Assembly: GCA_041665145.1 (NCBI GenBank)
Contig: JBAYJK010000003.1
Coordinates: forward strand, 69,177 to 133,176
Reading direction: 5' to 3'
Length of the DNA: 64,000 nt
Source of the DNA: Patescibacteria group bacterium
GTDB lineage: Bacteria; Patescibacteriota; Microgenomatia; UBA1406
In this document: positions 4,829 to 48,371 of the stretch, in pieces
How the letters are laid out: the number at the start of each line of letters is the position of its first letter
How positions within the stretch are numbered: the stretch's first letter is position 1
The notes under the pieces: generated by a model
What the model saw: only the letters and a program-made list of their open reading frames with translations
The model's database searches: none
Told to the model about the DNA's origin: nothing
Program-made: the position numbers and the translations under genes

Positions 4829-6595
4829 TCAAAAGAGTTCAAACTGTTCAAGAAGTTTTTTGTTTCCCTCAATCTGGTAACGCAATAAATCGGAATAGAT
4901 TCCTTTTCGCGTTGAGAGTTCTTTCGGCTTACCGTAATCTACCACCTGACCGTTGTCGATCACGATGACTTTATCTACGTTTTGGATGGTCGAAAAACGG
5001 TGGGCAATGATAATCACCAACTTATCTTTCATCAGGTGCCTCATGCCTTCCTGCACTTCGTTTTCCGAACGGGAGTCAAGGCTTGAAGTTGCTTCGTCCA
5101 GAATCAGAATCGGAGCATTCTTGTAAGATGCGCGCGCAATCTGAATCCGCTGTTTTTGACCCCCCGACAGGCGCACTCCCCGTTCTCCCACTTCGCTGTC
5201 TATACCCTTCGGGAGTTTCATGACGAAGTCATAGGCATTTGCCTGTTTCAGTGACGCAAGAACTTTCTGTTCGTCATACTCCATGCCGTATGATACATTT
5301 TCTTTTATGGTCGTAGAAAATAATTCGTTCTCCTGAAACACGAGCGCAATGGATTCACGTACTGTCCGGTAATCCAAAGTCGAATACTTTTTTCCTGAGA
5401 GAAGCAGTGTTCCTTTCGTCGGTTCGTACAGCTTCAGTATGAGGTTAACAATGGTTGACTTCCCCACTCCACTGTGGCCGACAAGCGCAACCGATTCCTG
5501 TTTTCCGATGTCAAACGAAATGTTTTTTAACACCATGTCAGACGATTCGTATTTGAAAGAAACATTTTTAAACGCGAGCGTCGGGCTTTTTGACGGCTTA
5601 CCCCGTTGAACTTTTGTGTAATCTTCCGTTGAGGGAAGTTTCATGATCTCGAAAAATTCGCGGGAACCACTTTCGGCCATTTGCACACGGGATAAAATGA
5701 AAGACATCGCAAATAACGGCCGTCTGGCAAGATTGACCATTTCGAGAATGAGTACCATTTCACTGATTGAAAGGTTACCCGAAAACGTGTTGTAGAAAAC
5801 AAGGATGCTGACAATACTCAGTATGACAACGAGACTACCGTTCCGGAAAAAATCAACGGTATGATATACGGCACTTTGATGCGCATATATTTTATTACTT
5901 TCGTCTAACTTCTGAGAAACTGTCCGGGCTTCAGTACTTTCATTGAGAAAGCTTTTTACGAGTTTGATGTTGCTGATAACTTCCTGAATCCGACCGCGGG
6001 TGTAATCTTCAATAACATTCTTTTTCTTCTCTTCTTCCCCCCACCATTTTGCCGAGTAGTAACTGAGGATGAGGTAAATCGGAAATAAAAGCGACATAAA
6101 AAAAGCGATCCACACGTTAAAGTAGGCAATAATCGATATGGTCAGTATGCTCTGCAGAATTGAGGGAAGAATGAAGTTGGTTGCCGTATTCATAAAGTCA
6201 TAAATGGTGCTGATTCCCCTGCTGAGTTGATTGAGGATCTTACCCGAGATTTCCGAATCAAAATAACTCTGCGGAAGCGTAAGTACTTTCGAATAGAACA
6301 TATCTGTCAAAAATTTCCGCAGCTTACCGGCGAAATGATCTCCAAGCCGTTCATTCGCAATACTTATTGTCATGCCGAGAAAACTGGCGGCAAAAGCGAT
6401 GACGATGAGTAAAGATACGGCACCGAGGTTGCCGCTCGAACTTTTTATCTGAAGCACGATCTGATCGATGACAAGTTTTGATAAAAGCGGTGCAATCATT
6501 TCCACCACGCCGCCGACGACGATGAGTAATGCAAGTGCCGCGATGAGATGATATAAGGGTTCTGATATTTGAATAATTTTCGCGATATTTTTCAC
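4829..6595 (-). CDS. ABC exporter, fused permease/ATPase (MsbA-like type I exporter)
   Basis: N-terminal 6-TM domain, Walker A GHSGVGKST, signature LSGGQKQR, Walker B ILILDEATS. Confidence 0.9.
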   Translation of the reverse strand: MKNIAKIIQISEPLYHLIAALALLIVVGGVVEMIAPLLSKLVIDQIVLQIKSSSGNLGAVSLLIVIAFAASFLGMTISIANERLGDHFAGKLRKFLTDMFYSKVLTLPQSYFDSEISGKILNQLSRGISTIYDFMNTATNFILPSILQSILTISIIAYFNVWIAFFMSLLFPIYLILSYYSAKWWGEEEKKKNVIEDYTRGRIQEVISNIKLVKSFLNESTEARTVSQKLDESNKIYAHQSAVYHTVDFFRNGSLVVILSIVSILVFYNTFSGNLSISEMVLILEMVNLARRPLFAMSFILSRVQMAESGSREFFEIMKLPSTEDYTKVQRGKPSKSPTLAFKNVSFKYESSDMVLKNISFDIGKQESVALVGHSGVGKSTIVNLILKLYEPTKGTLLLSGKKYSTLDYRTVRESIALVFQENELFSTTIKENVSYGMEYDEQKVLASLKQANAYDFVMKLPKGIDSEVGERGVRLSGGQKQRIQIARASYKNAPILILDEATSSLDSRSENEVQEGMRHLMKDKLVIIIAHRFSTIQNVDKVIVIDNGQVVDYGKPKELSTRKGIYSDLLRYQIEGNKKLLEQFELF

Positions 6596-9228: not shown

Positions 9229-10278
9229 ATGGAAAAAACATTGATCAAACGGAAACGAAAATACACCGTTGCCCTCCTCTACCACTTTGTACCGAAGACC
9301 GAGAAAGTACAGGATGAAGAGCACACTCTGACTGACGGAGAAACAGGTACCCTGATTCCCTATTTCAAACGAGTGTTTGAAAGTCATGATTTTAGGGTTC
9401 AGATTATTAAAATCCGAACAGACAACTACATGGCACTCAAAAAAGTCAAAGCGGATTATATTTTCAATTTGGTGGACAGTACAGAAATGTATTTGCGTAT
9501 CGGGAAAATATTGACCAAGATGAGCATCCCGTTCTCCGGTGCCTCGTTGGTCGGAATGCGCATTTCAAGCAACAAACTGCTTATGAAACGGATGTTCGAT
9601 AAATACAATATTTCGACCCCAAAATACACCATTATTCACATGAAAGACAGGATTACCCGTGACCTCGTGCCGTCAAAGTTTCCGGTAATCGTGAAACCGG
9701 CTTTTGAGCACTGCAGTATCGGTATAACCGTTGATTCGATTGCAACAAACTATCGGAACTTTCGGGCGGTCGTGAAAATGTTGCGGAGTAAATTCAACCA
9801 AACGTTACTCGCGGAAGAATTTATTGCGGGCCGCGAATTTCAAGTGACTGTTCTCGATACCCCCCGACGGACAATTGCGTTTCCGATCGCAGAGATTAAA
9901 TTCCGCTACGGCAAGGGAAACAAATGGAATATTTACGGGTATGACGAAAAGTGGAATAAAAACGTCGAAAGTTATAAATACCGGTATTTTGTCGCCCCTG
10001 CTCCCGGAGTCCCGAAAGATATCATGTATAAAATTAAGAAAGAGTGTATTCGTTCGTTTCATGCGTTCAATATGCGCGATTATGCACGTTTTGATCTCCG
10101 CTATTCTCCGGAACGGAAAATGTGGTATTTTCTGGAAGCAAACGCAACGTGTGATCTGGACCCGAGTCCCAAAGAAGCTACTACCACCTCTGTCCGGGCA
10201 CGCGGCATGACGCTTGATGAGTTCATCATCAGCATTGTGAACGATACGCTTGAAAAACGAGAGCAAACGATGCAATAA
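9229..10278 (+). CDS. ATP-grasp enzyme (D-Ala-D-Ala ligase-like fold)
   Basis: Segments SNKLLMKRMFDKYNISTPKY, FPVIVKPAFEHCSIGI and EEFIAGREFQVTVL form the ATP-grasp pattern. The start is taken at MEKTLIK rather than the upstream ATG at 9163. Confidence 0.7.
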   Translation: MEKTLIKRKRKYTVALLYHFVPKTEKVQDEEHTLTDGETGTLIPYFKRVFESHDFRVQIIKIRTDNYMALKKVKADYIFNLVDSTEMYLRIGKILTKMSIPFSGASLVGMRISSNKLLMKRMFDKYNISTPKYTIIHMKDRITRDLVPSKFPVIVKPAFEHCSIGITVDSIATNYRNFRAVVKMLRSKFNQTLLAEEFIAGREFQVTVLDTPRRTIAFPIAEIKFRYGKGNKWNIYGYDEKWNKNVESYKYRYFVAPAPGVPKDIMYKIKKECIRSFHAFNMRDYARFDLRYSPERKMWYFLEANATCDLDPSPKEATTTSVRARGMTLDEFIISIVNDTLEKREQTMQ

Positions 10279-10285
10279 TGATAGT

Positions 10286-10657
10286 ATGAAAAACTTACTC
10301 CAAAACGTTACTCAACAGGCCAGAGACAATGAATATTTTAGAAGAGTTCTTGCAACCGGAAAGCATACACAGGTAGTTATTATGAGCATCGCGGTCGGTG
10401 AAGACATCGGTGAGGAAACACACGCGGAGAATGACCAGGTACTCTATCTACTTGAAGGTGAAGGCGAAGTTGTTCTGGATGGCGAGCGTTCCCCCTACAA
10501 AGCTGGTGATCTCGTACTTGTTTCTGCCGGTATAAAACATAATTTCATTAATACCGGCGAAGTCCCGTTGAAAATACTTACCACCTATTCTCCTTCCCAT
10601 CATCCTGAAGGAACGGTACATAAAACGAAAGAAGAAGCGGAAAAGGCGGAATATTAG
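10286..10657 (+). CDS. cupin-domain protein
   Basis: GEETHAENDQVLYLLEGEG...GDLVLVSAGIKHNFINTG shows cupin motifs 1 and 2. Confidence 0.8.
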   Translation: MKNLLQNVTQQARDNEYFRRVLATGKHTQVVIMSIAVGEDIGEETHAENDQVLYLLEGEGEVVLDGERSPYKAGDLVLVSAGIKHNFINTGEVPLKILTTYSPSHHPEGTVHKTKEEAEKAEY

Positions 10658-10669
10658 AATTACATTCTA

Positions 10670-10689
10670 GGGCCGGGCATGCCCGGCCC
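10670..10689. repeat. REP-like GC-rich perfect palindrome GGGCCGGGCATGCCCGGCCC (intergenic copy)
   Basis: A 20-nt perfect palindrome (16/20 G+C) in an AT-rich spacer between the convergent cupin and RayT-like genes. It may act as a bidirectional terminator hairpin. Confidence 0.85.
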
Positions 10690-10706
10690 GTACGAATTTA
10701 ACATTT

Positions 10707-11162
10707 TCATTTCCTTGGATTGTATTCAATATAGTTTCTGATTGCGGTTAATTCTTTTTCATTCCTGATGATTCGGTCATAAAATGATCGATGCCATTGA
10801 AAATTAATACCCAACAAATGAATTAATTTCGAAGATGTTGATTTGAATGACCCAATGATTGTCGGTAGTAGGGGCCGGGCATGCCCGGCCCGTGGAACAG
10901 AGAAGTTGTTTATTACAATAATTCCATGCACATGGTCCGGCATTACGATATGCCGGTCAATTGAAACGGATTCAAAATGTTCGGGGATTTGAAACCATGT
11001 TTGGTGCATGGTCGTTCCAATTGGGTTGACACATATGCGTCCATGTTTTATCTCACCGAATATATTTCCGCGTTCTTGTGCGCATATGGTAATAAAATAC
11101 CACGCGTTTGAAGAATAATTGAAGTTTCTGTACATATTGGACTTACGAACAACAAAGACCAC
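10707..11162 (-). CDS. REP-associated tyrosine transposase-like protein (RayT / IS200-type Y1 HUH)
   Basis: HUH motif PDHVHGIIVI and C-terminal QWHRSFYDRIIRNEKELTAIRNYIEYNP, typical of COG1943/RayT. The start is uncertain (GTG at 11162 or ATG at 11135). Confidence 0.8.
   Translation of the reverse strand: MVFVVRKSNMYRNFNYSSNAWYFITICAQERGNIFGEIKHGRICVNPIGTTMHQTWFQIPEHFESVSIDRHIVMPDHVHGIIVINNFSVPRAGHARPLLPTIIGSFKSTSSKLIHLLGINFQWHRSFYDRIIRNEKELTAIRNYIEYNPRK
10872..10891. repeat. Second copy of the REP-like palindrome, embedded in-frame in the RayT-like CDS
   Basis: The same 20-mer with the same TA..GT flanks. It encodes ...PRAGHARPLL... Confidence 0.85.
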
Positions 11163-11210
11163 AAAACAAACTTATTCTAAGTCGAGCCTTATTACAACGG
11201 TTTATAAGCA

Positions 11211-11981
11211 TCATTCTAATTCAAATTCTGCAAAAACAGGATAATGGTCGGTAAGAGCGTCTGACAGGATTTCGCTGTTAATATATTCCATGCCGCGATA
11301 CAAAACGTGATCGTATTTTCTTCCCCTGGGTGTAGTCGAAGTAGTAAGGGGAACTTCAAAAATGCCCTGCTTACTCAACAACGGTGCAAATTGTTCCAAC
11401 GAGTCACTATCAATATTGAAATCTCCGGTAAGAAGGAAATGTGGCGCGCTTTCATGAATTTTTTCGTAAAAATCCTCCCGTAATTTTGCAGCATCTTGCC
11501 CGAACGGGTCGATCCCCAGTTTCCTGAATGGTATGAGGTGTACTGTCTCAATCAACACTTTCCTTTTTTTCAATATATCTATAGTGACTTTGGTGACGCC
11601 CTTGTCGTGCGTAATCCAGGTTTTCCCGCTCATTTTAAAAGACAAATGCGGGTTTTTAAACAACGTGAAAGAATGATCTATTATTGGAAACCGGGATATA
11701 ACACCCTGACTGAGCATCATCTGCGGATCAATGTGGGACTCCCCATAGGCATCGTGTCGCACGTAATGCAACTTTGTCATACTTGACAGTATCTGAAGCT
11801 GATCATATCCGCCCATTTTATGAGACTCCTGAAATGTAACAATATCAACGTTATACTTTTTGATCACCGAAGAAATATATGACAAATCAACCGTGGTGTA
11901 GCTTGCGTATACGGAAGAATCGGCGTTTTCCTCACGAATTCTGCCACCACCAATATTCCATTGTAATACTCGGATCTTCAT
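11211..11981 (-). CDS. endonuclease/exonuclease/phosphatase (EEP) family protein
   Basis: N-terminal MKIRVLQWNIGGG, TFQES, LLTGDFN and C-terminal TDHYPV. Confidence 0.85.
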   Translation of the reverse strand: MKIRVLQWNIGGGRIREENADSSVYASYTTVDLSYISSVIKKYNVDIVTFQESHKMGGYDQLQILSSMTKLHYVRHDAYGESHIDPQMMLSQGVISRFPIIDHSFTLFKNPHLSFKMSGKTWITHDKGVTKVTIDILKKRKVLIETVHLIPFRKLGIDPFGQDAAKLREDFYEKIHESAPHFLLTGDFNIDSDSLEQFAPLLSKQGIFEVPLTTSTTPRGRKYDHVLYRGMEYINSEILSDALTDHYPVFAEFELE

Positions 11982-12002
11982 AAAAAGAGTATATCACCTC
12001 TT

Positions 12003-12485
12003 TTATTCCAGCGGCTTTTTGACCAAACGGTAGTTGGGAACAATCTGGATAATGTTTCCGTTATCGTCTTCGATTGTTCTGGCGCCGGTTTTTTGAACAT
12101 ACTGTTCAAGGTAACCCGAAAGCATCTCATTGGCATGCTTCAACTCTTCACGAAGATTCTTCACTTTGTCTGCGACAGCAACTGTTCCCGGCTGTTGAGC
12201 GATTTTTTCTTTTGCGGCTGTTTTTACTTTTTTAACCTCTTTTTCTTTTTCGGTTGCTTCATGAAAATTGGCATCGTTCTCAAACGCGTCATTAAACATT
12301 GAACGTTGCTCCCTCATTTCTACTTTTAAGCGATTGATGTCACCCATATAACGCTTTATAAGCGTATCAAGCTGAAGCGATTGTTCCACTTCTCCATTGA
12401 CTTCCGGAGTCAAATTTTGTGTCTCAGCAGTCTCCGGAACAATGGTTGCTTCTTCTGGGGTAATGGCAGTTTTGTCGTCATTCAT
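12003..12485 (-). CDS. hypothetical coiled-coil protein (160 aa)
   Basis: ORF with a charged, K/E-rich central region. No motif recognised. Confidence 0.55.
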   Translation of the reverse strand: MNDDKTAITPEEATIVPETAETQNLTPEVNGEVEQSLQLDTLIKRYMGDINRLKVEMREQRSMFNDAFENDANFHEATEKEKEVKKVKTAAKEKIAQQPGTVAVADKVKNLREELKHANEMLSGYLEQYVQKTGARTIEDDNGNIIQIVPNYRLVKKPLE

Positions 12486-12571
12486 AATAATATAATAGAA
12501 CTAATAATGAGAATAATAACTATACTCGAAGAGTGCGGAACAAATCAAGGTGATAATTTCCCGGTAGGCGC

Positions 12572-12588
12572 TTTCAGCTTAATTTCAG
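12572..12588 (+). promoter_or_regulatory. Direct repeat TTTCAG-N5-TTTCAG, candidate operator of the adjacent OmpR-family regulator
   Basis: Two identical hexamers with 11-bp spacing, 9 nt upstream of TATAAT (12598-12603). That box is 7 nt from the ATG at 12611. Confidence 0.55.
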
Positions 12589-12610
12589 TCAAATTGGTAT
12601 AATTGACCCA

Positions 12611-13285
12611 ATGAGAATTCTGGTCGTTGAGGATGAACATCGGATTGCAAATTCAATCAAAACCGGCCTTCAGCAGGAAAAGTACGCTGTCGATATCTGT
12701 TATTCGGGTGATGAAGGCTTTGACTTGGCGTCTACTGAAGAATATGATGCGATTATTCTGGATTTGATGCTTCCCGGAATGGACGGTCTGGCAATTTGCA
12801 GGAACCTTCGAAAATCCCGCATACACACTCCAATTCTTATGTTGACGGCTAAAGGTCAAATTCAAGATAAGGTGACCGGACTGGATGCCGGTGCTGATGA
12901 TTATTTAACAAAACCCTTTTCATTTGAAGAGCTGTTGGCAAGACTGCGGGCGCTTGTTCGACGTCCTCGCGTAGCGCTTGAGACGGTACTATCCGTAGGC
13001 ACGCTGAAGCTTGATCCTAAAGCTTATACGGTTACTAGAAGCGGAAACGCTCTCAGCCTCTCAAGTAAAGAGTTTTCGCTCCTGGAGTACCTCGTGCGAA
13101 ACCAAGGCAAAATTCTGACGAAAGATCAGATTATCAGTCATGTCTGGGATTACGATGCGGATGTTCTACCCAACACCGTTGAAGTTTATATTCGTAATCT
13201 CCGAATTAAAATAGACGAACCGTTTAAAAAAGAAAAACCGCTCATTCGTACCGTGCGGGGTTTCGGTTACCAGATAGAAGAATAA
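12611..13285 (+). CDS. OmpR/PhoB-family response regulator
   Basis: Receiver domain (MRILVVEDE, DAIILDLMLPGMDG, LTAK) plus a winged-helix C-terminus (TVRGFGY). Confidence 0.95.
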   Translation: MRILVVEDEHRIANSIKTGLQQEKYAVDICYSGDEGFDLASTEEYDAIILDLMLPGMDGLAICRNLRKSRIHTPILMLTAKGQIQDKVTGLDAGADDYLTKPFSFEELLARLRALVRRPRVALETVLSVGTLKLDPKAYTVTRSGNALSLSSKEFSLLEYLVRNQGKILTKDQIISHVWDYDADVLPNTVEVYIRNLRIKIDEPFKKEKPLIRTVRGFGYQIEE

Positions 13286-19541: not shown

Positions 19542-19560
19542 GGCAACTGCCGCAGTTGCC
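19542..19560 (-). terminator. hairpin GGCAACTG-CCG-CAGTTGCC abutting the stop of the DUF2079 gene
   Basis: An 8-bp perfect stem directly after the stop codon, but with no clear T-run. Confidence 0.35.
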
Positions 19561-27542: not shown

Positions 27543-28175
27543 ATGCCAAAAGAGGTTAATTACCGAGAAGTGAAAGCAGAGAAACTGACGCCTTTATTTA
27601 AAGAAATAGAAATTGGGCATGGTCAGATACTTCCTCCACATTGCTGGGTTGAGTCTTCAGATTTCTACTACTGTGCTCTGCTTGTCGGAACAAATGGAGC
27701 CGGAGAAGTCCGTGTGGCGCACTCTAGCCCGAATGTAGAGCTGTATGATATTATGGCTTTCAGACATTTTACGTTCGGTTTCCCTCCAAACGTATTTCGG
27801 GAGCACCTGCCACAAATCTATCGGACTTTTGCACATATTGCCAAGTGCGATGCACAAGTACCGGGAATAGTTTACGCCTATGCGCGCCACGGAAGGGGTT
27901 ATCTGTGGAACGATCTTGAACTGGCCCGGGATTTAGTTTTTGAGTATCCGGAAAACACTGACTTATATACGGAACTAGGGTGGAACTTAGATTTGTTACG
28001 AAGTGCTCGTTTTACTCATGAGCCAATTGATGGTTCGTGTAAAGTCCCTTTTCATGCTGTTGTAGGCCTACAACAGTTTGGCGAAATGAGGAGATTGATT
28101 ACGAGCGTAACACAACCGGGAAAGCAATTGTACAGACATGTGATGGACTTTAGCTCTGTGATTACGAAAAATTAA
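27543..28175 (+). CDS. hypothetical protein (210 aa)
   Basis: ORF with TATAAT 5 nt upstream of the ATG. No motif recognised. Confidence 0.55.
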   Translation: MPKEVNYREVKAEKLTPLFKEIEIGHGQILPPHCWVESSDFYYCALLVGTNGAGEVRVAHSSPNVELYDIMAFRHFTFGFPPNVFREHLPQIYRTFAHIAKCDAQVPGIVYAYARHGRGYLWNDLELARDLVFEYPENTDLYTELGWNLDLLRSARFTHEPIDGSCKVPFHAVVGLQQFGEMRRLITSVTQPGKQLYRHVMDFSSVITKN

Positions 28176-43439: not shown

Positions 43440-44417
43440 TTACTTCGTACGAAGTAGCATCAATATTAGTCCAATTGTTCTATCTCTATCTTTAGGAGTA
43501 CTTTCGGAGACAAGTATTGTTAACGCTGTTAGGGCTTCTGGAGTCAATTTTTGAGTATTTAATATATTGGTCTTTTTTAGAAACCAAACAAATACAAAAG
43601 CACCGCTTCTTTTATTTCCGTCCACAAATGGGTGACCTTTAACAATAAGATATAGAAGATTAGCTGCTTTTTCCTCTGCTGTAGGGTACAACTCTTTTCC
43701 ATTGAATGTTTGAAACACAGTTCTAACAATCCCAGTTAGTCTTCCTTCTTCTTTCTCGCGACCGAAAAGGAGACCTGCTTCTTTATCTCCAATTAACTCT
43801 TCCTTTAGATTTACAATTAACTTACTGACTTGGCTGGCTGTAAGCTCAAAAACACTTTTAATCTTACCGGATTTAGGAAGAGAGTCTTTATCGTAGGTAT
43901 CAAGAGAAAGCCATGTTGATGCAAAAGTTTTTATTAACTCAAGTGTGTTTTGTGTAGAAATCTGACTCTCTGGCAGTAACTCCTGCACTTCGTTAAGCAC
44001 CTTAAGGAAAGTGTTATAATTTTTTTCTAAAATTCTTCTGTTGAGAGTGTAACCCTTTATAATATGTTGCTTGAGTGTCTTTGTTGCCCATTGACGGAAT
44101 CTTGTAGCATTTATTGAGTTTACTCGATAACCAATAGAAAGAACAAGGTCCAAGTTATAATACTCAACTTTCCTCAAGATTTTTCTTGTTCCTTCAGTCT
44201 GAACTGTTTCCAAAACGGAAACAGTTGACTCTCTCTCAAGCTCACGAGTTGTAAAAATATTCTTAACATGTTTTGAGATAGCTCCTTTTTGTACGTTAAA
44301 AAGTTGAGCTACTTGCATCTGAGTAAGCAAAATCGTTTCATTAACAGCATCAAGCTGTACCTCTACTGCGCCGTTTTGAGCCTGATAGACCATAATTTGT
44401 TTACTTTCTTTTTCCAT
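43440..44417 (-). CDS. RhuM-like N-terminal domain fused to a Fic/Doc domain
   Basis: YYNLDLVLSIGYRVNS..RFRQWAT (RhuM pattern) and the C-terminal Fic/Doc motif GHPFVDGNKRSGAF. Confidence 0.8.
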   Translation of the reverse strand: MEKESKQIMVYQAQNGAVEVQLDAVNETILLTQMQVAQLFNVQKGAISKHVKNIFTTRELERESTVSVLETVQTEGTRKILRKVEYYNLDLVLSIGYRVNSINATRFRQWATKTLKQHIIKGYTLNRRILEKNYNTFLKVLNEVQELLPESQISTQNTLELIKTFASTWLSLDTYDKDSLPKSGKIKSVFELTASQVSKLIVNLKEELIGDKEAGLLFGREKEEGRLTGIVRTVFQTFNGKELYPTAEEKAANLLYLIVKGHPFVDGNKRSGAFVFVWFLKKTNILNTQKLTPEALTALTILVSESTPKDRDRTIGLILMLLRTK

Positions 44418-44502
44418 GTTTCAAAGTATAACAAAAAAGTGCTCAATCTAGATTAAGCAGTGTAGTTACAGGGATATAATCTGAGCTTACTTCTGAGTTT
44501 GT

Positions 44503-44545
44503 TGTGAGTAACGGATGCGAACCCGGAAGTTCTTATAGTGTTATA
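44503..44545 (+). repeat. Family-1 junction repeat, copy F (most diverged)
   Basis: tgtGAGTAACGGATGcGaACCcGgAaGttCTTATAGtGttata. Confidence 0.7.
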
Positions 44546-44607
44546 GATACAAGCATAACTAAGTAGATTTTTTAAATCCCCGATGAAGTCTTTAGTATAA
44601 TGTGACT

Positions 44608-45258
44608 ATGAAATTGCTATTAACTTCAGCAGGATTAACAAATCCATCAATTAGCCACGCAGCAGAAGAGCTGTTAGGCCAACCGGCTGAAGGAGTAAAG
44701 CTTGCTTTTATCCCGACTGCCGCCAACGTTGAGCCCGGTGACAAAAGTTGGATGATTCAAGACCTGAATAATTTTCAAAACGCAGGTTTTGAAGTAGATA
44801 TTGTTGATATCTCAGCGGTTTCAAAGGATACATGGTTGCCAAGACTGCTGGAATCTAAAATCTTGTTTTTGGGAGGTGGAAATACATTTCATCTGATGCA
44901 CTGGGTTCAAAAGTCAGGTTTACAGGAAGAACTTCCCTCTTTACTGAAAACGAGAGTATATGCCGGTATTAGTGCCGGAAGTTGCATTACGGGGCCTACC
45001 GTTTACAATTCAGTGCAAAACCTATTTGGTGAGAAATATGATCTTCAAATAAAAGCTGGTTTGGGTTTGGTTGGATTCCAATTTATTCCCCATCTGAACT
45101 CGGCATATTTTGACAAGATTCGGGAAGTAAACTTGCGAGAGGCATCTAAGAATCTTAAAGAGCCAGTATATGCTTTAGATGATAACTCTGCACTCAAGAT
45201 TACCGATGATAAGGTGGAAATAATTAGTGAGGGAGAGTATTTGTTATTCAATGCCTGA
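44608..45258 (+). CDS. S51 peptidase (dipeptidase E-like)
   Basis: FIPTAA, GGGNTFHL, GISAGS. The ATG at 44608 is preferred over the GTG at 44602 because TATAAT 44596-44601 lies 6 nt upstream. Confidence 0.75.
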   Translation: MKLLLTSAGLTNPSISHAAEELLGQPAEGVKLAFIPTAANVEPGDKSWMIQDLNNFQNAGFEVDIVDISAVSKDTWLPRLLESKILFLGGGNTFHLMHWVQKSGLQEELPSLLKTRVYAGISAGSCITGPTVYNSVQNLFGEKYDLQIKAGLGLVGFQFIPHLNSAYFDKIREVNLREASKNLKEPVYALDDNSALKITDDKVEIISEGEYLLFNA

Positions 45259-45275
45259 GTCAGTTGCAGTTTGAA

Positions 45276-45328
45276 ATTGTTGTGTCGTTATAACTCTTTC
45301 TACAAGACCAGTGCTGGGTTTTGCTGAT
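45276..45328 (+). repeat. Family-4 repeat, copy G
   Basis: GTCGTTATAActctttcTACAaGACcAGTGCTGGGTTTTGcTGAT. Confidence 0.8.
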
Positions 45329-45330
45329 AA

Positions 45331-45351
45331 AGTTGGAAAATTTTACCAACT
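45331..45351. terminator. hairpin AGTTGG-aaaatttta-CCAACT between convergent genes
   Basis: A 6-bp stem with an A/T loop, abutting the stop of the 45353 gene. Confidence 0.45.
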
Positions 45352-45352
45352 A

Positions 45353-46117
45353 TTATACTAAGCAAGTTCCGATCAACTCTACTATCCTGACAATATTTTT
45401 ATCTATGTCACCATCTCTCATAAAGGCGTGTGGAATTTGCTCATCTTCGATGTATGAACCTTTATTTTTGTCTGGAGTAAAATCAAAAAAAGATTTAACC
45501 ATTAACGTACTCAACCTCGGAAAATAACCAAATTTATCTGAACCCCTGTCAGCAACTGGTAGATACCCGTTCGGTCCATGGTTTCTCAGAAAAGAGTGAA
45601 TCACATCAATTATTACTGAAGAAGAAATTTTTGCTAACTTTTGGCTTATAGTCTCCTTGTTTGGATTATAACTTTCAAATCCGCTCCATGTTTTGGGATT
45701 TAAGCTTTGAGCTTCAGTAATATAATAATCTGCAGGATCTATAAAAACCACTTTCGAGATAAAAGGATCAAATTGTTTATCTAACAGCGCCTCAGTTGTG
45801 CTATACGCACCCATGCTTGTACATAAAATAGCTATTGATGAAAACTTAAGCATAGATTTAGAATACTGCAATATCTCTAGGAGATCCGAAGTTTGTTGGT
45901 TTAGTGTCGGTTGTTTGTTTTCTTCGACGCCGCTGAAGGAAAAAGTGACAACTGGTCTGTTTGTTCGTTTTTGCAGTTCAAGTACTAAAGCGTTAAAAGT
46001 ATTTCTCGTATCTCCACTTCCTCCGACGAATATAACTGCCTCGTTGCTACCACTTAATGGGAAGTAGTTCAGCGAAATAGGTCGCCCTGTAATTCTAGAA
46101 AGTGTCAGTTCTTGCAT
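45353..46117 (-). CDS. alpha/beta-hydrolase-fold protein
   Basis: VIFVGGSGD, elbow-like CTSMGA, and C-terminal PHAF. Confidence 0.55.
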   Translation of the reverse strand: MQELTLSRITGRPISLNYFPLSGSNEAVIFVGGSGDTRNTFNALVLELQKRTNRPVVTFSFSGVEENKQPTLNQQTSDLLEILQYSKSMLKFSSIAILCTSMGAYSTTEALLDKQFDPFISKVVFIDPADYYITEAQSLNPKTWSGFESYNPNKETISQKLAKISSSVIIDVIHSFLRNHGPNGYLPVADRGSDKFGYFPRLSTLMVKSFFDFTPDKNKGSYIEDEQIPHAFMRDGDIDKNIVRIVELIGTCLV

Positions 46118-46181
46118 AGCTAAATTATACTAAAGTCCGAATCCTAGTTGGGTACTGTTGTTACAGGGATATACTGTAAGG
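46118..46181 (-). repeat. Family-2/3 repeat with promoter, copy H
   Basis: The plus strand reads AGTCCGAATCCtaGTTGggtactgTTGTTACAgGGaTAtactGTAAG preceded by the -10 box of the 46117 gene. Confidence 0.8.
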
Positions 46182-46212
46182 CTAAATTTCTTGACAGGGA
46201 TTAGTTGAAAAT

Positions 46213-46282
46213 GGTAGCTAGTCTCGTGTTCAAGTACTGCACAAAACAGTTCTTTTCCTACTTGCTCTCCCCATAAGCTACC
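46213..46282 (-). terminator. 70-nt nested-helix element directly after the stop of the 46289 gene
   Basis: Outer 7-bp stem GGTAGCT/AGCTACC and inner 6-bp stem CAAGTA/TACTTG. On the minus strand it is followed by ATTTT. Confidence 0.4.
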
Positions 46283-46288
46283 GAAATA

Positions 46289-46930
46289 CTATTTAAGATA
46301 TCCTATTTTGTAAGCAAATATTGTTCCTAATACACCTAACGCAGCACTTACTGTAGCTGTTACTAAATTAACGATAATCTGGTCTCCATTTCTCTTAAGA
46401 AAACCCTTCACGTCGTGCCTTTTTGACAAAACTATTTCACTGTGTTTAAACAATCTAATATAAAACACCCAAACCGTCCAGGCTAAGAACAGACAATAGA
46501 AATATAAAACAATCTGAGATATTACTCCATGTAATAATAGCCTGAAGACGAAAAAGCCAATATATCCGACCCATAAAGTGTAATCAGAGTATAGAAAACT
46601 TGGCTTTCGAGTGGTTGTCAAAATTATTCTGTCTAATTTGTAGAACAATCCTGCCCCAAGGTTATTATTTGATCCTACGTATAATCTGGTCCATAATTTA
46701 TGCAGCTCTAAAGTCACGTACGGAGAACTTGAAGAAATTTTAAGATCAGTAATTGACTCATTTTCGTACTTCTTACATAGCTCTTTTACATTTGAGAATT
46801 CCAAACTCTTAGACACAATCTTATATCCGCTTTTTTCGACCAACAATAATTCCTCTATGGCCTCAAGTTGATCTACAAAGACTCTTATTGGTGAATATTT
46901 TCTTAGAAGTGGCTCATTAATTCTTTTCAT
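46289..46930 (-). CDS. hypothetical membrane protein (soluble N-domain + 3-4 TM)
   Basis: 213 aa. It overlaps the upstream gene by ATGA (46927-46930). Confidence 0.6.
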   Translation of the reverse strand: MKRINEPLLRKYSPIRVFVDQLEAIEELLLVEKSGYKIVSKSLEFSNVKELCKKYENESITDLKISSSSPYVTLELHKLWTRLYVGSNNNLGAGLFYKLDRIILTTTRKPSFLYSDYTLWVGYIGFFVFRLLLHGVISQIVLYFYCLFLAWTVWVFYIRLFKHSEIVLSKRHDVKGFLKRNGDQIIVNLVTATVSAALGVLGTIFAYKIGYLK

Positions 46931-47460
46931 TTTTCTTGGCTTACTTTCGTGCCATCAGAAAAAATTGCCTCTAACTTAGTAAAAACATCTGTTGGGTGCT
47001 GATCTTTTTGATCAAAAGAAAGCCTTTTTATTTCTGGTTCAACAAAAATTTGCGTTTTCTCTTTTTTCCCTTTTTCACCAGCATAGACGACAAGACGCAA
47101 ACCAGTTTTTGATTCCATGAGTCTTGAAACAACAAAAAACCTATTGTCTTTCGAAGATACTTTGCTTTCAGCAATAGGAGTTGCTTCGTTATCAATATTA
47201 ATAAAATGCATTGTTTTATAGGTCCTAGAGTTTATCTCCTTTAAGATAAATTGTTTCTCATAGTATACAAATCTAGGAATGGAATATATTTTATTACATT
47301 TCTCACATTGCAACTTCTTACTTGTATATTCGTTATCCGTATAATCGTCTAAATGTAGGTCTAATTCAATATAGTCCCTTGGACACAAGGGAACAGCTCT
47401 CGCGGGGCGCTGCCCTATGATCCACCTTACCCCATCGACAATAAAACCTACTTTTAACAT
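46927..47460 (-). CDS. hypothetical protein with a Zn-ribbon-like CPxx...CxxC
   Basis: 177 aa with LCPRDY...CEKCNK. It is translationally coupled to 46289-46930. Confidence 0.6.
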   Translation of the reverse strand: MLKVGFIVDGVRWIIGQRPARAVPLCPRDYIELDLHLDDYTDNEYTSKKLQCEKCNKIYSIPRFVYYEKQFILKEINSRTYKTMHFINIDNEATPIAESKVSSKDNRFFVVSRLMESKTGLRLVVYAGEKGKKEKTQIFVEPEIKRLSFDQKDQHPTDVFTKLEAIFSDGTKVSQEK

Positions 47461-47461
47461 T

Positions 47462-47513
47462 GTGCTGGGAGTAACGGATGTGGACCTGAAAGGCCTTATA
47501 ACGGTGTCTCACC
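47462..47513 (+). repeat. Family-1 junction repeat, copy I (island boundary)
   Basis: GTGCTGGGAGTAACGGATGTGGACCtGaAaGGCCTTATAacGGTGTCTCAcc. Confidence 0.85.
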
Positions 47514-47561
47514 TTTGAGGCTAAATGGGACATTTGGTACAGTATAAAAAGAAACAACTCA

Positions 47562-47578
47562 TCTTCATAAAATCTTAA
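47562..47578 (+). promoter_or_regulatory. Direct repeat TCTTCA-N5-TCTTAA (island RR box 1)
   Basis: 11-bp phasing, 12 nt upstream of TAGTAT (47591-47596), which is 6 nt from the ATG at 47603. Confidence 0.55.
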
Positions 47579-47602
47579 TTCATGTGGTTGTAGTATTTGA
47601 CT

Positions 47603-47863
47603 ATGTTTTATAAGAAAGAGATAGTTAAACAGCTAAACCTTTCTCAGCATACTGTTACAGATGTTATCAATGAACTTCCATCCGATTACGACTGGAAATT
47701 TCTCTGTCAGAAGATTGAGCTTGCGATAGTTAAACTTAACCGAGCTTCAGAACTGCTACGAATATACCATCTCGAGGTTTGTACCCTGAATAAACAAGAT
47801 AGAACAAAAACCACTTTAGGTTCTCAGACTATCAGTGAAGTTATGAAAGCATATAAATTTTAG
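47603..47863 (+). CDS. small protein with a possible HTH (86 aa)
   Basis: KQLNLSQHTVTDVI looks HTH-like. The ATG at 47603 is preferred over the TTG at 47597. Confidence 0.45.
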   Translation: MFYKKEIVKQLNLSQHTVTDVINELPSDYDWKFLCQKIELAIVKLNRASELLRIYHLEVCTLNKQDRTKTTLGSQTISEVMKAYKF

Positions 47864-47876
47864 CAAGAAGATAAAT

Positions 47877-48371
47877 ATGAGCTCAAAAGTTATAATTACT
47901 CTTTGCGTTTTCTTCGGCGTAATGCTCGGACTTGTTTTCTTTATAACAACTGGTCAAAAGCCGGATCTGGCGTCTATTGTATATTCCGCTCAAGATACTA
48001 ATCGGCCCAAAGTTGAGGCAAATAGCGTATTCAAAAACCTTGGGGAAATCAGCGTGTCCGATGTGAAAAAGCAGGACTTTTCTTTCAAAAATACAGGCAC
48101 CAAGCCTCTTCAGATTCTCGGAATTAGTTCGAGCTGCGGCTGTACAACAGGTCAGCTAATTTACAAAGGTACAACTACAAAACCATACAGTATGCATGCC
48201 CAAAGCGGATTCATTACTAACATAGCGCCAGGTGAAAGTGCCATAGTTCGCCTCGTATACCGCCCCGCGACTATGCCTGTGTACGGTCTCGTTGAGCGCG
48301 AAGTGTATGTAACGACAAACGATCCTCTTAATCAGAAATTGGTGTTTAGCATTAAAGCAAAGGTGAGGTAA
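47877..48371 (+). CDS. DUF1573-domain protein, membrane-anchored
   Basis: N-terminal TM, FKNTGTKPLQI and SSSCGCTTG. Confidence 0.75.
   Translation: MSSKVIITLCVFFGVMLGLVFFITTGQKPDLASIVYSAQDTNRPKVEANSVFKNLGEISVSDVKKQDFSFKNTGTKPLQILGISSSCGCTTGQLIYKGTTTKPYSMHAQSGFITNIAPGESAIVRLVYRPATMPVYGLVEREVYVTTNDPLNQKLVFSIKAKVR

Follow-up and report, generated by a model that had tools for sequence, protein, structure and literature searches.

An in-frame REP palindrome inside a RayT-like nuclease gene of a Patescibacteria group bacterium

Introduction

The stretch analysed here (64,000 nucleotides of a Patescibacteria group bacterium, assembly GCA_041665145.1, contig JBAYJK010000003.1, positions 69,177–133,176; hereafter the window) encodes a small RayT-like nuclease of the HUH single-tyrosine (Y1) class, tnpA-REP, which is accompanied by two copies of one GC-rich palindrome, the first just past the stop codon of the gene and the second in frame within it. 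The locus raises the question of how an enzyme of this kind came to carry, within its own coding sequence (CDS), the type of hairpin on which it presumably acts: by coincidence, by selection for a cis-acting element, or by an insertion that was tolerated. We favour the last of these, at a probability of about 0.8, and read the locus as a REPtron of the type found in TnpA-Y1 subclass 2.4, in which one repetitive extragenic palindrome (REP) lies between convergent genes and a second landed, with the reading frame preserved, in a loop-coding segment of the nuclease gene, where it was tolerated.

Results

Two copies of one palindrome

The 20-mer GGGCCGGGCATGCCCGGCCC is a perfect palindrome present in two exact copies in the window (10670–10689 and 10872–10891), with no third copy in the 64 kb when up to three mismatches were allowed and a chance expectation of 0 matches in 100 dinucleotide-preserving shuffles. 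Its G+C content is 18/20, and the two copies are the sole GC-rich (0.90) perfect palindromes recovered by a perfect-hairpin scan of the window, the remaining hairpins being AT-rich or unrelated. Folded as single-stranded DNA (ssDNA), each copy is predicted to form, on either strand, a hairpin of about −11 kcal/mol that has 8 bp in its stem and CATG in its loop. The copies differ in their flanks, which read cTA-palindrome-GTACG downstream of the gene and gTAG-palindrome-GTgga inside it, with one extra G in the internal copy. Within tnpA and 1 kb to either side, REPs are represented by the internal copy, which has a perfect GT[AG]G foot (GTAG), and by the second copy 17 nt downstream of the gene, whose foot reads CTAG on one strand and GTAC on the other. 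The latter sits between convergent stops, 12 nt past that of a cupin gene (which ends at 10657) and 17 nt past that of tnpA (10707–10709). An independent ENA assembly of the genome has the same arrangement (L001/L202), so the palindrome pair is not an assembly artefact.

Most of what an earlier note on this DNA had reported from the letters is borne out: the two positions of the palindrome and the lack of others in the 64 kb (even at three mismatches), the distance of 17 nt from the stop codon, now mapped to 10707–10709, and the TA and GT flanks of both copies with an extra G in the second. Its figure of 16/20 G+C has to be corrected to 18/20, and the AT-rich surroundings that it described are indeed below half G+C but only moderately so, at 0.42 in the window and 0.37 in the tnpA gene without the palindrome. 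The features of the locus are as follows.

10667–10694, no strand assigned: downstream REP, comprising CTA, the palindrome (10670–10689) and a GTACG tail
10707–11162, minus strand: tnpA-REP (RayT-like HUH-Y1 nuclease gene), an open reading frame of 151 amino acids from GTG 11162
10716–10733, minus strand: tyrosine motif YIEYNP (Y144–P149); Y144 and I145 invariant and N148 at least 90% conserved in the homolog alignment A1, described below
10781–10798, minus strand: W123-H-R-S-F-Y128, the 'WQ' motif region, here WH; W123 invariant in A1
10868–10891, plus strand: internal REP, comprising a GTAG foot (10868–10871, on the strand antisense to the gene) and the palindrome (10872–10891)
Internal REP as translated, minus strand: R91-A-G-H-A-R-P97, in the context ...SVP-RAGHARP-LLP...
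10926–10934, minus strand: HUH motif H77-V78-H79, within MPDHVHGII; P75, H77 and H79 invariant in A1

A TnpA-REP-type nuclease

The search for homologs of the window protein yielded 152, and conservation was assessed in an alignment of 50 sequences (A1), comprising the window protein and 49 homologs. An AlphaFold2 model built on this alignment (predicted local distance difference test score 90, predicted template modelling score 0.82) places the HUH motif on a strand (residues 77–84) that is followed by a coil (85–98) and a helix (99–116), with the palindrome-encoded residues R91–P97 within the coil. The top Foldseek match of the model in the PDB is 4er8_A, the E. coli TnpA-REP in complex with a REP hairpin (E=1.6e-7, template modelling scores 0.67/0.62, root-mean-square deviation 2.5 Å), and the TnpA structures of IS608, ISDra2 and IS200 rank behind it (ranks 2–30). 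A profile search against the PDB also retrieves 4er8_A (E=5e-6) and aligns YIEYNP to YIYINP of that structure. Y144 is presumably the catalytic residue and N148 the third metal ligand, in line with the roles described for the catalytic tyrosine and the N/Q metal ligand of TnpA-REP (PMC6006769); the 'WQ' region of the E. coli enzyme (W94/Q95/R104) has been implicated in recognition of GTAG (PMC6006769). Fold, catalytic residues and homologs thus support a nuclease of the RayT/TnpA-REP HUH-Y1 type, and the gene is labelled 'REP element-mobilizing transposase RayT' in IMG.

The public annotation (P0001) starts this gene at ATG 11135 and gives a protein of 142 amino acids. The family-conserved residues R6-K7 (consensus RKxNRL..YDYS) are encoded upstream of that ATG (11136–11162, minus strand), so GTG 11162, and with it a protein of 151 amino acids, may be the true start; no clear Shine–Dalgarno sequence was found before either GTG 11162 or ATG 11135.

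Linker hairpins across the family

The linker between the HUH motif and the 'L..IIG.FK' helix is hypervariable in length and sequence in A1 and rich in insertions and deletions. We examined its DNA in 80 homologous metagenome loci, the window and three genome loci (84 in all), of which nine without placeable motifs were left out and 75 were analysed. The linker between the HUH and W motifs has 4.01 perfect hairpins (stem of at least 10) per kb, compared with 0.06 per kb in the N-terminal part of the gene, 0.14 in its C-terminal part and 0.25 in the flanking DNA. A linker hairpin is present in 45 of the 75 loci at this stem length and in 56 at a stem of at least 8, and 44 of the 75 linkers hold a flawless 10-bp arm. 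The hairpins number 0–3 per linker and vary between genes in sequence, reading frame and orientation, with intact, degenerate and empty linkers found side by side among the homologs. In most of them a GT[AG]G foot is present, either on a single strand or on both (22 with a double foot, 32 with a single foot, 12 with none), and in 12 of the 56 loci the exact linker core also occurs outside the gene, mostly within ~100 nt of the gene ends, which is the layout of the window.

The same REP is read in two frames in L142 (VGARHAVPLH) and L188 (CRGTACRAPT), whose proteins are 61% identical, and 100% identity of REP cores is seen among genes with only 54–65% identity of their proteins and 38–56% identity at four-fold sites, which are near saturation. 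The peptide RAGHARP itself is confined to loci with the identical palindrome DNA, so the reading as an insertion stands: on this sequence comparison, the internal copy of the window is an in-frame insertion relative to the family.

These results agree with the earlier note in its identification of a RayT-like HUH transposase, which the fold match to 4er8_A, the residues H77/H79/Y144/N148 and the homologs back, and in its placement of the internal copy in frame between the HUH motif and the C-terminal catalytic region, R91–P97 lying between H77–H79 and Y144–P149. The note had also proposed an alignment of homologs, in which the segment does appear as an insertion at a hypervariable site where homologs have other palindromes or none. 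It had named the same peptide encoded by non-palindromic DNA in homologs as the finding that would speak against insertion; RAGHARP was seen only with the identical palindrome.

At one further locus (L153, plus strand, ~5001–5483), the linker is REP-like (IGRENRAPT) and a second site, flanked by helix alphaC and the W motif, has the tandem REP-like peptide VGAGSPRPIHAGSPRPIQ; the beta3/alphaC loop is therefore not the sole permissive site.

The same REP in other genomes

When species-representative genomes were scanned, the exact 20-mer was recovered from at least 120 stretches, spread over many GC-rich lineages; Bryobacteraceae, Acidobacteriia, Gemmiger and Actinomycetes metagenome-assembled genomes (MAGs) were among the matches listed. 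A GT[AG]G foot is present on at least one side in 119 of the 138 occurrences in other genomes among these matches. Judged from these sequences, the window palindrome is a genuine, cosmopolitan GTAG-tagged REP.

Three stretches, among the matches listed, contain both the 20-mer and a homolog of the window protein. In Gemmiger formicilis and a second Gemmiger sp., the linker of the homolog is free of an insert and GTAG-footed copies of the 20-mer flank the gene, which makes it a textbook REPtron; the REP beside the Gemmiger homolog has the same 24 nt as GTAG and the palindrome in the internal copy of the window. Many dispersed GTAG-footed copies of the same 20-mer were seen in Gemmiger (Firmicutes, GC ~0.59; L091, L112 and ~25 other loci), and the tnpA CDS of the Gemmiger REPtron is, by eye, more AT-rich than its surroundings.

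The third homolog, from a Bryobacteraceae (Acidobacteriota) MAG, shares the palindrome with the window both in its position in the linker and in its reading frame (HGILVINEP-RAGHARP-LHTVVGAFK), and 27 of 28 nt are identical to the window at the same codon position, in proteins that are 38% identical. This gene (L098 3896–4330, plus strand) has an in-frame TGA at the conserved Y128 position (WQRGY*DRIIR) and could be a pseudogene or a recoded gene. REPs of another type, GTAGGGGCC(C/G)CATACATGCGGCCCG, lie on either side of it. A metagenome contig (L145) encodes a protein 99% identical to the Bryobacteraceae homolog with the same RAGHARP linker.

The enzymes associated with the identical 20-mer, three in all, share 36–39% identity with one another and rank ~63rd–67th among 74 relatives of the window protein. 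Joint inheritance of the enzyme with its REP was rejected, as these enzymes are not near relatives at that identity, and so was recent import of the locus from a GC-rich donor, the gene without the palindrome having a GC content (0.37) below that of the window (0.42).

The closest named relative, at 47% identity, is from Candidatus Shapirobacteria, another member of the candidate phyla radiation (CPR) (GCA_000992725.1, LBUT01000018.1; L206). Its locus (L206 9600–12800) has at least 10 REPs of the form GTAG-GGNNCAGGCATGCCTGNNCC-GTACGG within 20 kb, with compensatory stem variants (AAC/GTT, TGC/GCA, ATC/GAT and GGC/GCC), and these REPs have the GGCATGCC centre and the GTACG tail in common with the downstream copy of the window. 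Two REPs lie within the Shapirobacteria tnpA, where they encode part of the N-terminal beta-hairpin (VGCRHACTV) and of the linker (VGNRHACSV), and about five lie within a neighbouring gene of 973 amino acids (10225–13146, minus strand). The linker REP has its GTAG on the sense strand, an orientation opposite to that in the window, which argues for independent insertions. A second Y1 gene was noted 8 kb away from this tnpA.

Relation to published systems

In-frame REPs inside tnpA-REP genes were described, as a feature of subclass 2.4, in the TnpA-Y1 classification of Quentin, Siguier, Chandler and Fichant (2018, BMC Genomics 19:475, PMC6006769), together with 'long' and 'double foot' GT[AG]G REPs, the latter of the form GT[AG]G...C[TC]AC. 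The idea that linker hairpins across the family are an undescribed phenomenon was rejected in view of that paper. The same source gives the subclass the signature motifs NH[IFV]H, WQ and YIxNNP, a variable insert between beta3 and alphaC, an 8-residue insert at the end of alphaB and no conserved C-terminal extension, and its Table S1 lists the REP GTAGGGGCACGGCATGCCGTGCCC for the subclass 2.4 protein ACF44614; L142 and L188 carry this REP as GTAGGGGCACGGCATGCCGTGCCC(CTAC). The window system is most like this subclass (RAYT group 4, RAYT standing for REP-associated tyrosine transposase), a placement that rests on shared features and shared REP types and not on the hidden Markov model of its authors. 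The likeness comprises the HUH-Y1 core, the variable insert in the beta3/alphaC loop, an in-frame REP in tnpA, a long REP with three G-C pairs at its foot (GGG...CCC) and a single 5' GTAG, and a protein that lacks a C-terminal extension. The window differs from the published set in the length of the protein (151 amino acids compared with a mean of 194), in its host, a Patescibacteria (CPR) MAG where the published members are mostly from Cyanobacteria and Bacteroidetes, and in having one flanking REP only, with an imperfect foot.

Among other systems, the E. coli TnpA-REP of the REP/BIME REPtron (YafM; 4ER8; Ton-Hoang 2012, PMC3333891; Messing 2012, PMC3479197; Corneloup 2021, PMC8266576) is the best fold match and has in common with the window the HUH motif, the W motif, Y-I-x-x-N-P and a GTAG-tagged REP. 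It is, however, only 18% identical to the window protein and belongs to subclass 2.2, with a C-terminal tail; its REP is an imperfect palindrome with a bulge, unlike the perfect one of the window, and the hundreds of REPs in E. coli include none inside tnpA. Members of the GTAG-REP superfamily and Rickettsia palindromic elements are similar as short GC-rich stem-loops with a GTAG foot that are preferably located between convergent open reading frames, and proteins tolerate their in-frame insertion, which adds a few to tens of residues, sometimes at the same orthologous site. GTAG-tagged REPs favour sites between convergent or unidirectionally transcribed open reading frames, with a possible role as RNA elements (Di Nocera et al. 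2013, PMC3733652). The in-frame intragenic REPs catalogued there are mainly in replication and repair genes, whereas in the window the host gene is that of the REP's own presumed nuclease.

IS200/IS605 TnpA proteins (IS608, ISDra2) have the HUH-Y1 fold and recognise ssDNA hairpins with a 5' guide tetranucleotide. The window locus, in contrast, lacks distinct left-end and right-end subterminal hairpins, its two hairpins being identical REPs of which one is inside the CDS; it has no tnpB, its neighbours are cupin and Exo_endo_phos genes, and there is one gene copy in ~83 kb. Assignment to an IS200/IS605 insertion sequence was rejected on the lack of insertion sequence ends and of tnpB and the single gene copy in ~83 kb; the Y1_Tnp score below cut-off is a further difference.

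Neighbouring features

An Exo_endo_phos nuclease/phosphatase gene (11211–11981, minus strand) lies 48 nt upstream of tnpA in the same orientation, so the two may be co-transcribed, and a second Exo_endo_phos gene is located ~700 nt beyond the right end of the window (L204 10733–11569). An Rfam scan of 9500–12500 found no relevant RNA family, the lone weak sub-threshold match (12039–12221, E=0.11) being unrelated. Elsewhere in the window there is another perfect 20-nt palindrome, CTGTTGTAGGCCTACAACAG, in a single copy (28057–28076, GC 0.50), and a 9-bp GC-rich hairpin, GGCAACTGCCGCAGTTGCC (19542–19560). The GC content of the window falls to 0.36–0.37 around 44001–48000.

Discussion

We infer that the window enzyme acts on its hairpin, that the internal copy arose by insertion through this activity and that the insert is neutral. 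By analogy with characterised TnpA-REP proteins, the 151-residue HUH/single-tyrosine nuclease would bind the folded REP hairpin on ssDNA and read its 5' GTAG foot, and tyrosine-mediated cleavage and strand transfer would follow beside the REP. Both palindromes would be copies of the cognate REP, consisting of GTAG, GGGCCGGG-CATG-CCCGGCCC and a G(TACG) tail. The downstream copy would occupy a usual REP site, between convergent genes and just past a stop codon. The second copy would have entered the stretch of tnpA that codes for the beta3/alphaC surface loop, its net length leaving the frame intact. The resulting short RAGHARP peptide, probably disordered and away from the active site, would be tolerated, and across the subclass the loop-coding segment would serve as a recurrent site of landing and turnover for whichever REP type the host genome carries. 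The biochemistry of TnpA-REP comes from the E. coli, Stenotrophomonas and Marinomonas enzymes (PMC3333891, PMC8266576), and no literature test of the ssDNA REP cleavage mechanism on any subclass 2.4 protein was found. Tolerated self-targeted insertion had been one of the options put forward in the earlier note and matches the published interpretation (PMC6006769); the novelty that the note implied was overestimated, the arrangement having already been described in that paper.

Several observations weigh against this reading, some of them touching the enzyme and some the REPs. The protein scores below the equivalog cut-off of the NCBIfam model NF047646 (REP_Tyr_transpos; E=2.8e-16, 59.7 bits, cut-off 80) and below that of Pfam PF01797 (Y1_Tnp; 18.7 bits, cut-off 23), both cut-offs being operational thresholds and not biological features. 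Its C-terminus (NPRK, about 3 residues past NP) is shorter than in most homologs and has no extension, and each of its motifs (DHVH, WH and YIEYNP) deviates once from the subclass 2.4 signature; the closest relatives share the D and the WH, as in P0003 with MPDHVH and WH. As for the REPs, the foot of the downstream copy is imperfect (CTAG on one strand, GTAC on the other), and no copy was found upstream of tnpA within the neighbourhood of 1 kb to either side. A dispersed family is also not apparent from the contig, where only two copies occur in ~83 kb of ~919 kb (the 64-kb window and ~19 kb walked outward from it, the latter with no further copy at up to four mismatches). We estimate that two copies per ~83 kb are compatible with up to ~30 more at 95% confidence if these were randomly scattered, and for group 4 RAYTs, whose flanking 16-mers reach only ~14 copies per replicon (Bertels et al. 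2017, PMC5581495), a small number of REPs is the norm. Finally, the identity of REP cores between genes with near-saturated four-fold sites fits poorly with inserts that are merely tolerated.

This last observation would be accommodated by an alternative that we regard as unlikely but worth keeping in view, namely that the internal hairpin is maintained by selection as a cis element, either as an autoregulatory site of binding or cleavage on the gene's own ssDNA or mRNA or as a protected master copy, a REP shielded from loss by selection on the reading frame of the enzyme. A selected harbour for the cognate hairpin would explain the prevalence of flawless palindromes (44 of 75 linkers), the REP-core identity among diverged genes and the 27 of 28 nt that the CPR and Acidobacteriota genes share at one codon position, and it would suit hairpins that are found in 56 of 75 subclass members and are enriched 30- to 60-fold relative to other parts of the gene. 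However, linkers in apparently intact genes of Gemmiger, L126 and L130 are free of hairpins and others hold degenerate copies, and the variation in frame, orientation, copy number (0–3) and sequence is better fitted by recurrent insertion and decay. Conservation of the REPs, moreover, is also explicable by recent re-insertion, or by gene conversion in which the donors are genomic REPs under constraint from the enzyme, and we therefore prefer a tolerated insertion for the internal copy.

Tolerated insertion is compatible with a role of the downstream copy as a transcription terminator or a 3'-end mRNA stabiliser for the convergent cupin and tnpA genes, although we consider it very improbable that this is mainly what the copy is. 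Its position 12 and 17 nt after the two stops, its stable GC hairpin on both strands and the prevalence of REPs between convergent or unidirectional open reading frames, with possible action as RNA elements (PMC3733652), would suit such a role, but no T-tract adjoins it on either strand, a terminator scan of 10000–11500 found nothing, and the other hairpins of the window are AT-rich and unrelated. A terminator would also leave the exact duplicate inside the neighbouring gene unexplained. The view that the palindrome inside the gene is ancestral coding sequence and matches the downstream copy by coincidence or through an assembly artefact is effectively refuted: the frame is intact and the peptide short, as this view would have it, but the segment aligns to the hypervariable, indel-rich linker, RAGHARP appears only with the identical palindrome while the same REP DNA is read in different frames elsewhere, zero chance matches are expected and the independent assembly is identical.

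The arrangement is real and was published in 2018 as typical of an enzyme subclass, and the window adds a member of this known kind from a CPR bacterium. For the window itself this matters little, as the in-frame REP is a published hallmark of the subclass and the gene is already named RayT in IMG. More broadly, REPtrons with intragenic REPs also occur in the small genomes of CPR/Patescibacteria, and one exact GTAG-tagged 20-mer REP is common to Firmicutes, Acidobacteriota, Actinomycetes MAGs and a CPR bacterium, although its partner enzymes share just 36–39% identity with one another. Linker REPs are far better conserved than synonymous sites, and whether the gene of such an enzyme acts as a hot spot for the substrate or as a safe harbour is relevant to the spread and persistence of REPs.

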